Numbered from the stretch's first letter, positions 48,401 through 50,878 are shown. The stretch is 64,000 bases of DNA from Podarcis liolepis (GCA_965112155.1 OZ218098.1); one strand, 5' to 3'. The notes: generated from the sequence alone by a model not told the origin. Numbers and translations: made by a program.

Positions 48401-50878
48401 AAAGGAAAAATGGATTGGGAGAGAGGAGGAAGTGAGGCAAATTCTTAGTCACAGTTTCTGTTAATGGCCATTGGGAGTGGAAAAGTTAATGGAGAGGAGG
48501 TGCCAGAAGTTGCTGTCCTCCCAGCTGTTGGAGTGGCCCTGCATCCCTTCCCTTCCATCCTCTGCTGCAGCCTGATGGCAGGTGACAGGTGATGGAGGGA
48601 AGAGTCAGACTTCTCAGCAGAGCTCGGGGTGCTGCTTCTGCACCTCTTCTCTTCCCCTTCTCTGGTTCAGGCTGATGTAAGATGACACACTCCCAGTTCC
48701 CACCCCAGTGCCTGGTGGGATCCCTGTAGTTCAGTAGTCCTGGATGGCTGTATGCAGCTAGACAGGTGCGCCTGTGCACTGCATGGATCGCCAGTGGGAG
48801 GGAGAGCAGACTAATGGAAAATTGTTGCATTTGGAAGGGCACATGATGGGCTGTGATGTCTCAAAGCACTTAGTCTCTCTGTCTTTCCTCCTCAGCATCT
48901 TTCTCACCCCCCTGATAGCCTTTCACCATTCCTCTTTTGACCTGCCCACAGCCTCATATCAGGTATCACAGCTCTGCATTTGTGCAGCCTCTGCCTGCCT
49001 TATTCCTGTAGTGCTGATGAGTGGCCTAATGCTGTCTTATATTACTTGCTTCTTGGCTGGCTTTCTCTCCCTCTCTTTTTTGTGTGTGTGAGTGTGCGTG
49101 CGTGTGCACACGCACCCCTGAAATACTTGTGTGTTTGTGTGCTGGGAAAGAAAAGTGTTTTTGCCTTGGTTAAGTAATTTGAAACTGCTTAAAACTTTAC
49201 AAAATATTTGTACCCCACCATCATACATGTGCAGGGTATGATCAGTAAAGAGGTTTTCCCCCTCCTGGAATTGGTGAAGCACAGTTATTGCTAATTTTCC
49301 TTGCCTCCATGTTTCCTTGCCTCTAATTTTCCTCTCCTCCATGTCGAATCTGTGTGCACCTTGCTGTTTTTATGAAAGTGTTCTCTAAATCTTTGCTATT
49401 TTAACATAATTACTGGTTGGACTGATCTGTGCAACGCTTCTTAACTTCAGTGTTTATACCCATCAGACACATTTTGCGTAGAATTAACCAGGGTTGGCTT
49501 CTGTGTCCCACTCAAATATAGACAACATTTTTCAACTGTTTCCACTACATTTCCTGTACTTTGGAACAAAGCTCAGGATACAGAAGGGTGACTTATGAAG
49601 CATCTAGTGCACCCCACCAGATGCTGTTGGTCTCAGATTCCTATCATCCCTAGTCAGCATGGTCAGCACCATGGTTGGCTACCCCTGGTGTAGTGGGAGA
49701 CATCCTTCTAAGAGTCAGTGCCTGCATTCTCATAATCTAATCTGCAGCGGCTATTCTGGAGCTGAATCTTAAGTCTCCTAGTTTAATGCTTGATTTCGCC
49801 AGTGCTCCTTTTCACTACTCATGATTTGGGAGATATTCCTTGTCCTCCCAATTTCTTCACTGCCTGTAACATCTTTTCATGAGTTGATGGGATGCGCAGT
49901 TTGTAATGGAATTGCCAGTAACAGCCGGTCTGCTAGGAAACGTGGCGCATGATGCATCTAGATAGTATTTCATGCACACAGACATTTGAGTTTGGCAAAC
50001 CTGTGAAAGCTAGCTCTCTTTTCTGGTGTCCCATCCCATGACCCTGGGATTTTTGCTCCCTTTCTTAAGATGGGTCAGGGACCTCCACAGTGAAAGAAAA
50101 CGCCTGTATGGTATGCAGATAGGTGTCAATAACACCTTTTTGTCTGCAGTGGGGGGTTTTTTGCTAGCTTTTGAGATCTACTTTAGCACCATATTTGGGG
50201 GGGTCAGAAACTGTTTTTTCTTTCCTCTGTTCAGTCTGGCTAGTGACCTTCTTTCCTTCCCTCCCCTGCTGTGCCCAATATTAACATAGTGTGTGGTTAC
50301 ACCTGGTTAGTTGGAGCACCTGGAGTCATTTTCTCTGTAAGCACTTCCTGCTTCGTGGCTGTGTGGGCTTGGTCCAACAAGCAGAAAGTTGCAGTGGTCA
50401 TCTCTTTAGTCCCTCCCAAGTGTACAATGTGACTTTGTCCACATAGTAGGGAACAGCCTCTTGTGGGTTTCCTGCACTTCAGTGTTCTGGCACCTACTTT
50501 TTCCTCTTCAGCTCGCATGTCTCATGTTATGGTCTCTATCCACAGGCCGGCCCTGATCACAGTTACAGCAAGGAAAAGATCAAGATTGTGGAAGGGATAT
50601 GCCTCTTGTCCAGCGATGAATCAGAGTGGGACGACCTGAAACAGATACGGAGCTCTCGGGGGTGTATCCTCCGTGACCACGTCTGCATGAAGACTGACAC
50701 GGTCTCTATCCAAGCCAGCTCCGGCTCACTGGATGACACCGAAACTGAGCAGCTGCTGCAGGAGGAGCAGTCAGAATGCAGCAGCATCAATGCGGCAGCA
50801 ACCCCTGAGCGCCGCGGCTCCCTTCCAGACACAGGCTGGAAGCACCAACGCAAACCCTCAACAGAGAGTGATGTCTAA
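3319..50878 (+). CDS. LRP4: LDL receptor-related protein 4 (MEGF7), spliced CDS exons 2-38; exon 1 (signal peptide) is upstream of the window
   Basis: 37 GT-AG exons with compatible phases join into one ORF: 8 LDLa, EGF, 4 YWTD propellers, TM, NPSY, C-terminal TESDV*. Exon sizes match the human LRP4 pattern as I recall it. Residues equivalent to human D529, R1170, W1186, E1233 and R1277 fall at the expected positions. Confidence 0.98.
6057..6364 (-). mobile_element. CR1 LINE 3' end (ORF2 C-terminus + 3'UTR)
   Basis: Minus-strand ...[34 protein letters not shown] is a typical CR1 ORF2 end. A related 3'UTR fragment lies at about 9056-9213. Confidence 0.8.
7968..8024. repeat. (AAC)19 microsatellite
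   Basis: Perfect trinucleotide run. Confidence 0.95.
13178..13357 (-). mobile_element. tRNA(Ala)-derived SINE with CR1-like tail
   Basis: Reverse complement of the element at 31832-32028 (gctgtagct...agaacatctgctttgcatgc head; cttcctacattcct tail). Confidence 0.7.
14157..14273 (+). CDS. LRP4: LRP4 exon 3 (LDLa2)
   Basis: ttctag|[38 protein letters not shown]|gtaagt; 117 nt. Confidence 0.96.
14837..14950 (+). CDS. LRP4: LRP4 exon 4 (LDLa3)
   Basis: ttacag|[37 protein letters not shown]|gttagt; 114 nt. Confidence 0.96.
15222..15422 (-). mobile_element. Squam3-like SINE
   Basis: cccgcctttcttccaaggagctcaaggtggc...ctcacaac...tagtccaacgc...tacaccacactggct. Confidence 0.75.
15636..15826. mobile_element. 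Tc1/mariner (Tigger/pogo-like) MITE
   Basis: Perfect TIR CAGTGGTACCTCGGGTTA / TAACCCGAGGTACCACTG with TA TSDs; sister copy at 62972-63186. Confidence 0.9.
15992..16108 (+). CDS. LRP4: LRP4 exon 5 (LDLa4)
   Basis: ttgcag|[39 protein letters not shown]|gtaagt; 117 nt. Confidence 0.96.
16775..16950 (-). mobile_element. Squam3-like SINE
   Basis: ttcttccaaggagctcaag...ccccacaacaatcctgtgaggtaggttagg...cttcatggctga. Confidence 0.75.
18737..18771. repeat. (TG)n microsatellite
   Basis: Dinucleotide run with one interruption. Confidence 0.9.
20282..20410 (+). CDS. LRP4: LRP4 exon 6 (LDLa5)
   Basis: tttttag|[42 protein letters not shown]|gtaagt; 129 nt. Confidence 0.96.
20734..20853 (+). CDS. LRP4: LRP4 exon 7 (LDLa6)
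   Basis: ttgcag|[39 protein letters not shown]|gtgagt; 120 nt. Confidence 0.96.
21420..21545 (+). CDS. LRP4: LRP4 exon 8 (LDLa7)
   Basis: cctcag|[41 protein letters not shown]|gtgaaa; 126 nt. Confidence 0.96.
22078..22203 (+). CDS. LRP4: LRP4 exon 9 (LDLa8)
   Basis: ctttag|[42 protein letters not shown]|gtaagt; 126 nt. Confidence 0.96.
22247..22648. mobile_element. Palindromic (hairpin) MITE filling intron 9
   Basis: Outer arms acatcacattagacca / tggtttaatgtgatgt and inner arms tctgaacc...aagccaagg / ccttggctt...ggttcaga are inverted repeats. Confidence 0.7.
22737..22871 (+). CDS. LRP4: LRP4 exon 10 (EGF)
   Basis: ctgcag|[44 protein letters not shown]|gtcagc; 135 nt. Confidence 0.96.
23224..23349 (+). 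CDS. LRP4: LRP4 exon 11 (Ca-binding EGF)
   Basis: cttcag|[42 protein letters not shown]|gtaaga; 126 nt. Confidence 0.96.
23965..24385 (-). mobile_element. L2 LINE fragment (degenerate)
   Basis: Minus-strand [21 protein letters not shown] resembles the L2 ORF2 C-terminal LHWLP..FK motif. Confidence 0.65.
24528..24758 (+). CDS. LRP4: LRP4 exon 12 (beta-propeller 1)
   Basis: cttcag|[17 protein letters not shown]...VVSTGLESP|gtgagc; 231 nt. Confidence 0.96.
25016..25172 (+). CDS. LRP4: LRP4 exon 13 (beta-propeller 1)
   Basis: tcccag|[24 protein letters not shown]...AIALHPMEG|gtgagt; 157 nt. Confidence 0.96.
25626..25843 (+). CDS. LRP4: LRP4 exon 14 (beta-propeller 1)
   Basis: caatag|[15 protein letters not shown]...NRKAVISQ|gtgaga; 218 nt. 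Confidence 0.96.
26554..26730 (+). CDS. LRP4: LRP4 exon 15 (beta-propeller 1 end)
   Basis: ctgcag|[20 protein letters not shown]...LHPQRQPA|gtaact; 177 nt. Confidence 0.96.
27439..27561 (+). CDS. LRP4: LRP4 exon 16 (EGF)
   Basis: gagcag|[40 protein letters not shown]|gtaagt; 123 nt. Confidence 0.95.
27790..28615 (+). mobile_element. Old, degenerate CR1 LINE 3' portion
   Basis: gagctggaaaagatgcaggagaga (ELEKxQxR motif) followed by a 3'UTR matching the reverse complement of the 6057-6364 CR1 tail. Confidence 0.6.
28971..29179 (+). CDS. LRP4: LRP4 exon 17 (beta-propeller 2)
   Basis: gatcag|[19 protein letters not shown]...KWDGTGQE|gtaatg; 209 nt. Confidence 0.96.
29735..29816 (+). CDS. LRP4: LRP4 exon 18 (beta-propeller 2)
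   Basis: tgctag|[27 protein letters not shown]|gtactg; 82 nt. Confidence 0.95.
31137..31242 (+). CDS. LRP4: LRP4 exon 19 (beta-propeller 2)
   Basis: atgcag|[34 protein letters not shown]|gtgaga; 106 nt. Confidence 0.96.
31706..32028 (+). mobile_element. Two head-to-tail tRNA-derived SINEs (Lys-like head at about 31706, Ala-like head at about 31832), both with CR1-like tails
   Basis: A-box tagctcag..gtagagc with CTT-loop remnant; second head gtagctcattggcagaacatctgccttgcatgc; tails cccaactctgtga and cttcctatattcct. Confidence 0.7.
32485..32686 (+). CDS. LRP4: LRP4 exon 20 (beta-propeller 2)
   Basis: (tg)9cag|[19 protein letters not shown]...GLDGSNRK|gtaaga; 202 nt. Confidence 0.95.
32752..33170 (-). 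mobile_element. L2 LINE 3' end
   Basis: [29 protein letters not shown]...[15 protein letters not shown]...FKRQLK is a canonical L2 ORF2 C-terminus with an (ATT)n tail. Confidence 0.88.
33812..34001 (+). CDS. LRP4: LRP4 exon 21 (beta-propeller 2 end)
   Basis: tgacag|[15 protein letters not shown]...HVFHRHRPS|gtacat; 190 nt. Confidence 0.96.
34590..34831. mobile_element. Tc1/mariner (Tigger-like) MITE, CpG-rich
   Basis: TA|CAGTGGTACCT...AGGTATGACTG|TA. Confidence 0.8.
35070..35680 (-). mobile_element. L1/Tx1-like LINE 3' fragment
   Basis: Minus-strand [24 protein letters not shown]...DYAEMAEMT resembles squamate L1 ORF2 C-termini; A-rich tail. Confidence 0.7.
35744..35875 (+). CDS. LRP4: LRP4 exon 22 (EGF)
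   Basis: tttcag|[43 protein letters not shown]|gtaggt; 132 nt. Confidence 0.96.
36241..36577 (+). mobile_element. Sauria SINE (Squam1, lacertid type), near full length
   Basis: gggacacgggtggcgctgtgggttaaacc head, caagtagataaataggtacc core, (ACCTTT)n tail, TSD taaagaatgtca (36225-36236 / 36578-36589). Confidence 0.93.
37171..37311 (+). CDS. LRP4: LRP4 exon 23 (beta-propeller 3)
   Basis: ccgcag|[27 protein letters not shown]...GVDPQE|gtctga; 141 nt. Confidence 0.94.
37844..37930 (+). CDS. LRP4: LRP4 exon 24 (beta-propeller 3)
   Basis: ccacag|[28 protein letters not shown]|gtaata; 87 nt. Confidence 0.95.
38168..38339 (+). CDS. LRP4: LRP4 exon 25 (beta-propeller 3)
   Basis: tactag|[20 protein letters not shown]...[13 protein letters not shown]|gtgagt; 172 nt. 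Confidence 0.96.
38464..38626 (+). CDS. LRP4: LRP4 exon 26 (beta-propeller 3)
   Basis: cttcag|[20 protein letters not shown]...WADAHTE|gttgga; 163 nt. Confidence 0.95.
39020..39389 (-). mobile_element. 5'-truncated non-LTR retrotransposon with (ACTTG)n tail, nested in a palindromic MITE
   Basis: 12-bp TSD ctaccacttgtg at 39008-39019 and 39390-39401; minus-strand aataaaggttacttgacttgacttgac tail. Confidence 0.75.
39863..40088 (+). CDS. LRP4: LRP4 exon 27 (beta-propeller 3 end)
   Basis: cttcag|[26 protein letters not shown]...AVDRKHPL|gtaagt; 226 nt. Confidence 0.96.
41023..41326 (+). CDS. LRP4: LRP4 exon 28 (EGF + start of beta-propeller 4)
   Basis: ccatag|[17 protein letters not shown]...[10 protein letters not shown]|gtagga; 304 nt. 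Confidence 0.96.
41469..41687 (+). CDS. LRP4: LRP4 exon 29 (beta-propeller 4)
   Basis: ttccag|[22 protein letters not shown]...AIAVFPRK|gtaagt; 219 nt. Confidence 0.96.
42152..42400 (-). mobile_element. Young CR1 LINE 3' end
   Basis: Open C-terminus [49 protein letters not shown] plus (ATTCTATG)n tail. Confidence 0.92.
42467..42510. repeat. (TG)22 microsatellite about 30 nt upstream of the exon 30 acceptor
   Basis: Perfect dinucleotide run. Confidence 0.95.
42543..42677 (+). CDS. LRP4: LRP4 exon 30 (beta-propeller 4)
   Basis: ccccag|[20 protein letters not shown]...TLDYDTR|gtcagt; 135 nt. Confidence 0.96.
42854..42962 (+). CDS. LRP4: LRP4 exon 31 (beta-propeller 4)
   Basis: ttctag|[36 protein letters not shown]|gtacaa; 109 nt. 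Confidence 0.96.
43184..43328 (+). CDS. LRP4: LRP4 exon 32 (beta-propeller 4 end)
   Basis: gagcag|[23 protein letters not shown]...VSPQRQT|gtatat; 145 nt. Confidence 0.95.
44347..44370. repeat. (CA)n microsatellite
   Basis: Dinucleotide run. Confidence 0.9.
44924..45037 (+). CDS. LRP4: LRP4 exon 33 (EGF)
   Basis: ttttag|[37 protein letters not shown]|gtaagt; 114 nt. Confidence 0.96.
45690..45813 (+). CDS. LRP4: LRP4 exon 34 (divergent Ser/Thr/Pro-rich linker)
   Basis: gtgtag|[41 protein letters not shown]|gtgagt; 124 nt, phase-compatible with exons 33 and 35. Confidence 0.9.
46223..46290 (+). CDS. LRP4: LRP4 exon 35 (juxtamembrane)
   Basis: gtgtag|[22 protein letters not shown]|gtgagt; 68 nt. 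Confidence 0.92.
47089..47173 (+). CDS. LRP4: LRP4 exon 36 (transmembrane helix)
   Basis: tttcag|[27 protein letters not shown]|gtaatt; 85 nt. Confidence 0.95.
47911..48049 (+). CDS. LRP4: LRP4 exon 37 (cytoplasmic, NPxY motif)
   Basis: ctgcag|[46 protein letters not shown]|gtaaga; 139 nt. Confidence 0.96.
50546..50878 (+). CDS. LRP4: LRP4 exon 38 coding part (cytoplasmic tail, PDZ ligand ESDV, stop TAA)
   Basis: ccacag|[21 protein letters not shown]...[16 protein letters not shown]. Confidence 0.96.

Follow-up and report, generated by a model that had tools for sequence, protein, structure and literature searches.

LRP4, a gene of myasthenia and syndactyly, encodes the receptor for agrin at the neuromuscular junction, and its locus in the lizard Podarcis liolepis raises the question of whether splicing within the last intron can exchange the end of the receptor's cytoplasmic tail, which carries a PDZ ligand. 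A first-pass annotation of the window, as we call the whole stretch of 64,000 nucleotides (nt) that was analysed (GCA_965112155.1 OZ218098.1), proposed that four micro- and mini-exons of 6, 11, 23 and 41 nt in this intron together form such a switch. Our analysis points to a different answer. With a probability of about 0.9, the real feature of the intron is one 67-nt cassette exon with an in-frame stop, orthologous to the muscle exon 37B (37´) of mouse and human. This exon is already known, as exon 37B in those two species and as part of RefSeq models for two lacertids. What remains of interest is the deep conservation of the short tail and a candidate microexon.

LRP4 lies on the + strand of the window. 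Splicing the Zootoca LRP4 protein onto the window from residue 122 onward gave 34 introns, all GT-AG, and placed the last of them, intron 37 in the numbering of the cited papers that we follow throughout, at 48050-50545 (2496 nt, phase 0). In protein searches, the product of the last exon (50546-50878) was 100% identical to the Zootoca and Podarcis LRP4 tails. The features on which the argument turns are as follows.

47911..48049, + strand: LRP4 penultimate coding exon (exon 37), which codes for NPSY and ends ...QLCYKE in phase 0 (Zootoca mapping; RNA joints leaving 48049).
48876..48895, + strand: CU-rich polypyrimidine tract and acceptor of the 67-nt exon (TCTT/CTCT motifs; joint 48049>48896).
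48896..48962, + strand: cassette exon, 67 nt (joints on both sides, GT-AG; RefSeq peptide match; mouse 37B primer match; translation).
50546..50878, + strand: coding part of the LRP4 last exon (exon 38), 110 amino acids with the PDZ ligand ESDV at the end, not translated in transcripts that include the 67-nt exon (RNA joints enter 50546).

The cassette was delimited by RNA joints. We sampled four of the 24 runs listed, all from a close relative (organism A) that differs from the window at 25 of 1463 nt of intron 37 (about 1.7%); tissue range and depth were thin. Three runs (X1, X5 and X9) are contig sets guessed to be RNA, and the fourth (X23) consists of raw RNA reads, of which about 12% were read and 27 were placed. 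Contigs lose rare forms and read rows require three reads, such that these data show presence and not strict absence. Four joints were listed within intron 37, three of them canonical. The direct skipping joint, 48049>50546, was found in contigs of X1, X5 and X9 (depth 225, 28 and 33, respectively) and in one X23 read. The joint 48049>48896 was carried by six X23 reads with five different starts, and 48962>50546 by two X23 reads and one X5 contig (depth 3.2). Because these last two joints enter at 48896 and leave at 48962, the cassette corresponds to 48896-48962. Its inclusion differs among the four runs. The fourth, non-canonical joint (49463>49584) comes from one X5 contig that skips 120 nt with eight other letters between (CA..AG); it probably reflects a genomic variant of organism A.

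The exon encodes 14 residues followed by an in-frame TGA at 48938-48940. Two predicted RefSeq isoforms, XP_034970976 (Zootoca vivipara X3) and XP_053242814 (Podarcis raffonei X4), end exactly in this peptide, and the Zootoca LRP4 isoforms have lengths of 1819 amino acids with the short tail and 1915 amino acids. The match extends to mammals at the nucleotide level: a mouse exon 37B primer agrees with the lizard sequence at 24 of 29 nt, and its last 16 are unchanged. No substitution in organism A was listed across the exon and its flanks (116 nt), with at most two differences on that contig left unprinted.

Scores from a splice-site weight matrix trained on the 34 LRP4 introns of the window agree in part with this picture. 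The matrix comprises 34 introns only and partly scores its own training set, such that ranks, given here among the 153 AGs (acceptors) and 160 GTs (donors) of intron 37, are a guide and do not amount to MaxEnt scores. The acceptor at 48896 is the best of the 153. Three considerations weigh against our reading at this point. The donor at 48963 (rank 12 of 160) scores under all 34 constitutive donors, although the RNA shows that it is used nonetheless. The junction reads are few, with eight for inclusion and one for skipping among the 27 reads placed from one run. Finally, the RNA derives from organism A and not from the window's own individual.

The same exon has been described in other species. 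In the passages available to us, an unannotated but conserved 62-base-pair exon 37´ in mouse intron 37 is reported to depend on PTBP1 and to add a stop (bioRxiv 10.1101/2020.06.30.171983), and to be muscle-specific in mouse and chicken (same preprint). The corresponding passages of a second paper describe exon 37B as 62 nt long with a stop after 14 amino acids, validated by reverse transcription PCR in mouse and human muscle and faint in brain (PMC11911633). By analogy with mouse, human and chicken, muscle bias and PTBP1 control are likely in the lizard as well, and the polypyrimidine tract at 48876-48895 is likely a PTBP1 target. In the mechanism that we propose, inclusion would probably take place in striated muscle and be repressed elsewhere by PTBP1; low PTBP1 in muscle would allow the strong CU-rich acceptor to be used together with the weak donor. 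There are five YGCY motifs in the 100 nt after the 48963 donor, where 1.6 are expected (P about 0.03, post hoc), followed by a TG repeat, an arrangement such as muscle activators would need.

A few other sequences surround the exon. The TG/CG-type short repeat, at 49080-49110 and thus about 120 nt past the 48963 donor, may be a CELF-type site or a plain microsatellite. Upstream, the only TGCATG of the intron (48780) and an ACTAAT (48810) lie just before the exon; we take these to be RBFOX- and QKI-type motifs. When the P. liolepis genome was searched with 48600-49250, one match besides the window was obtained, 47 nt at 87% identity on C21 (8007395-8007441), which pairs with the repeat-rich stretch at about 49061-49106 and is likely low-complexity.

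A receptor made from the included form would keep its ectodomain, its membrane anchor and NPSY, and the 14-residue end would replace the 110-amino acid tail with ESDV. The truncated protein is a prediction from the transcript. The loss of the PDZ-ligand tail through splicing in intron 37, which the first-pass annotation had foreseen, is thus borne out, by way of an exon with its own stop. The annotation had also predicted that tail-less products would escape nonsense-mediated decay, and this is expected of the exon found here as well. Under the established 50-55-nt rule, decay is triggered by stops that lie farther than this ahead of the final junction; since the stop of the 67-nt exon lies 22 nt ahead of the last junction, inside that zone, the transcript is predicted to escape. 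Alternatively, the exon might act as a poison exon and reduce LRP4 mRNA by way of decay, as the early stop and the lengthening of an already long 3´ untranslated region (one X5 contig extends 5254 nt beyond the start of the last exon) would allow. We consider this improbable given the position of the stop, the excess of inclusion over skipping reads in X23, and the retention of frame and last residues across 29 species, and given that exon 37B is expressed at the level of its flanking exons in mouse muscle, according to the passages cited (PMC11911633).

The purpose of such an exchange would be to uncouple the receptor from class I PDZ scaffolds through loss of ESDV. The LRP4 PDZ motif is reported to bind PSD-95 (PMC4331535). 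The mouse work suggests that the functional weight may be small: neuromuscular junctions are normal in mice without the whole LRP4 intracellular domain (PMC3748711), long-term potentiation is intact without the whole tail (PMC4331535), and most tail alleles that were knocked in, among them a truncating splice form that occurs naturally, leave the limbs normal (PMC4331535). The importance of the switch is therefore capped by the mild or absent phenotype of tail-less knock-ins.

Is the short tail itself a signal, or does only the truncation matter? We sorted 379 LRP4 proteins by their C-terminal ends, with the large clusters sampled at 15 of 1058 and 15 of 656 entries. Among the proteins listed, 295 pass from exon 37 straight into the last exon without an insert, and two more, classed as "other", are also direct; the remaining ends comprise 36 alternative tails, 19 intron read-throughs, 25 without an exon-37 end and 2 other. 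The 36 alternative tails correspond to 31 named entries from 29 species and five open reading frames (ORFs) from Logan. They occur in sharks (LSGPSDSLSPFIF), in bowfin and teleosts (LSHPYNSLSPFIF) and in birds (KLSYHSDSFSSSLF), as well as in coelacanth, lungfish, caecilians, salamanders, frogs, lizards and mammals. The last F is invariant across the 21 distinct tails, as is S at positions -4 and -6; position -1 is L or I, and 20 of 21 have F at -2 (birds have S), which gives a putative PDZ-ligand end. Class II PDZ ligands have hydrophobic residues at 0 and -2. Start variants move by one codon with the frame kept.

The recurrence of the short tail from shark to mammal argues for an old and kept function. 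One version of that function is that the muscle tail is a selected signal, S-L-S-P-F-[LI]-F-COOH, of jawed-vertebrate age, which would replace the class I ligand ES[DEQ]V and bind a different scaffold or export factor. We put this forward tentatively and regard it as rather unlikely; were it true, the cytoplasmic wiring of the agrin receptor would differ at the neuromuscular junction from that of the brain form studied so far. The passages cited above treat the exon as a truncation in mouse, human and chicken, and within them neither conservation past chicken nor a tail motif is mentioned.

Somewhat short of an even chance is the competing view that the conserved tail is a by-product: the exon would be kept as RNA, for splicing regulation or for an 11-nt short form, with truncation alone mattering for the protein. 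The composition of the exon suits this view, as it is 73% pyrimidine and contains a branch-point-like CTGAT, a pyrimidine run and an internal AG at 48950-48951, whose acceptor ranks 6 of 153 with a TGC 8 nt upstream; use of that internal acceptor was not seen in the RNA. The 16 nt identical with mouse include third codon positions, whereas the mouse and human 37B primers differ at synonymous sites only (2 of 2). In the bird tail, SFSSSLF, S stands in place of F at -2 and of P at -3, and a pyrimidine transition would suffice for each change, judging from the genetic code. However, the replacement of L by I at -1 in sharks and ray-finned fish requires a pyrimidine to become A, and yet the residue stays hydrophobic; the start variants shift by one codon, which leaves the frame intact. 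Sturgeon and paddlefish isoforms truncate otherwise, ending ...QLRYRH and ...QLRYWH, in keeping with a role for truncation as such. A bamboo-shark isoform that ends ...IDVLVMLSYMPT represents another route to a truncated tail.

Whichever of these accounts for the short tail, the 67-nt cassette exon takes the place of the chain proposed initially. The larger three pieces of that chain are as follows.

48952..48962, + strand: 11-nt piece, the 3´-terminal, untranslated part of the 67-nt exon; its start is a possible internal acceptor (rank 6 of 153), with no use seen in the RNA.
49151..49173, + strand: 23-nt piece, not accepted as an exon (acceptor rank 92 of 153, donor rank 16 of 160; no RNA joint).
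50070..50110, + strand: 41-nt piece, rejected as an exon (acceptor rank 8 of 153, donor rank 20 of 160; no RNA joint).

That four such exons, included together, add 27 residues, and that partial inclusion drops the PDZ tail, now appears very improbable. The description of the sequence was accurate in most respects. All four pieces are present at the coordinates given, each flanked by AG..GTA, and all 16 combinations translate as claimed, including the in-frame, stop-free 81 nt (27 amino acids) and the tail of the 11-nt piece alone. AG-free zones of 46, 31, 56 and 54 nt precede the 6-, 11-, 23- and 41-nt pieces, respectively, and a TGC lies near the larger three (8, 10 and 15 nt upstream); the statement that each has a nearby TGC fails for the 6-nt piece, for which the distance is 31-37 nt. 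The 48963 donor assigned to the 11-nt exon is real, but the acceptor in use is 48896, not 48952, and the best 48962>50546 read extends at least 44 nt upstream of 48962.

Joint inclusion, in contrast, found no counterpart: one 67-nt exon is seen instead, with no joint to 49151 or 50070. In the four organism A runs, at low depth, there were neither joints nor inserted letters at 48671, 48952, 49151 or 50070, and where inserts of 6, 75 or 81 nt had been expected, the RNA shows only 0 and 67 nt. Among 386 proteins listed from the LRP4 searches, none contains PHIR, KVFLPW, GSGTST or ENACM, the 27-residue insert, or the predicted frameshift tails; the seven near-length ORFs from the third protein search do not span the exon junction. 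A rare four-exon product could escape contig-based RNA data, a consideration that tells against our reading of the intron.

Chains of this kind arise readily. At the weakest of the site scores in the proposed chain, intron 37 holds 37 candidate exons of 3-45 nt, which yield 99 frame-restoring, stop-free pairs and 256 triples; among the other LRP4 introns longer than 1 kilobase (kb), 8 of 11 give at least one such triple, and one 4.2-kb intron gives 944. Given these numbers, a stop-free chain is easily assembled post hoc, and the four-exon chain is an example of one arising by chance. The 23- and 41-nt pieces owe their splice-like sites to chance: the acceptor of the former scores below all 34 real acceptors, and the donor of the latter below all 34 real donors. 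In organism A, the 41-nt piece differs by four substitutions, compared with 0.7 expected from the local rate (post hoc P of about 0.006), and two of the four alter the proposed residues (G>R, V>M). Around the 23-nt piece, by comparison, the 265 nt of 49111-49375 contain one difference from organism A at most, where 4.5 would be expected (P about 0.06). This would suit the chain, and a regulatory element of the intron, downstream of the muscle exon, may explain it as well as the 23-nt piece does.

The smallest piece of the chain merits separate consideration.

48671..48676, + strand: GCTGAT, a candidate microexon of 6 nt that would encode Ala-Asp (ranks: acceptor 3 of 153, donor 2 of 160).

Among the LRP4 sense introns (26.5 kb), which offer 2567 microexon candidates, this piece scores highest, and its score is reached by 1 of 300 block shuffles of the intron and by one antisense site in the 64 kb. 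Both sites are of constitutive strength, the frame is kept, and the 46-nt AG-free zone is as described above. That it is a real, probably neural microexon adding Ala-Asp to the full-length tail is possible, at somewhat less than even odds. The antisense site in fact scores higher, which puts the chance frequency of such scores at about one in 64 kb. In the four organism A runs, whose tissues are not stated, neither joints nor inserted letters were found for the piece, and no AD, AE or AK occurs at the exon 37-38 junction among the 386 proteins listed, with the large clusters sampled as above. The TGC-bearing stretch upstream is missing from one X5 contig, which lacks 17 nt at 48632 (depth 3.2; this may be an error). 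A two-residue mini-exon has reportedly been described in mammalian LRP4 intron 37. The literature search, with most subscription papers outside its reach, returned no report of an LRP4 mini-exon or exon 37a, and the 62-nt 37´/37B instead. If the microexon is used, it may add a third tail form, 220 nt upstream of the muscle exon.

The second- and third-best microexon scores in the gene belong to 48571-48581 and 48571-48588, which have one acceptor in common, 100 nt upstream of the 6-nt piece. A G>T change at 48589 in organism A destroys the second of the two donors, and neither form has RNA support in the four runs.

Exon 37 shows further variation of its own. Lacertid LRP4 reads LCYKE at 48047-48049, where nearly all other vertebrates have KKE or RKE and hence one residue more; caecilian LRP4 is likewise one residue shorter at the end of this exon. 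An internal donor at 47993 (GAG|gtaaag) is represented by Podarcis raffonei isoform X3, which joins STQE to AGPDH, thereby dropping 19 residues with NPSY and ESDV kept, a further tail form.

How do these elements compare with known systems? SRRM4-type neural microexons are 3-27 nt long and frame-preserving, with strong sites, a long AG-free zone and a UGC near the acceptor. The 6-nt piece resembles them in length, frame, strong sites and AG-free zone and differs in the distance of its nearest TGC; it is a putative member of this class. The 67-nt exon has closer counterparts. The RefSeq isoforms XP_034970976 and XP_053242814 have the same end peptide and are automatic predictions without an attached function. 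The Lrp4 AS knock-in allele, described in the accessible part of PMC4331535 with reference to a 2007 thesis, reproduces a natural splice form whose tail is cut short after NPxY, and is likely identical with exon 37B. Taking exon 37B as about 62-66 nt with a stop after 13-14 residues, we counted the lizard exon, at 67 nt and 14 residues, as the same exon. The lizard exon is longer than that of mouse (67 versus 62 nt), and its first codon is CAT (His), whereas mammals have CAG, which permits a start one codon shorter. Nevertheless, the lizard exon and exon 37B of mouse and human lie in the same intron, have similar lengths and carry an in-frame stop after 14 residues, and the lizard exon and the mammalian 37B entries have in common the C-terminal SLSPFLF.

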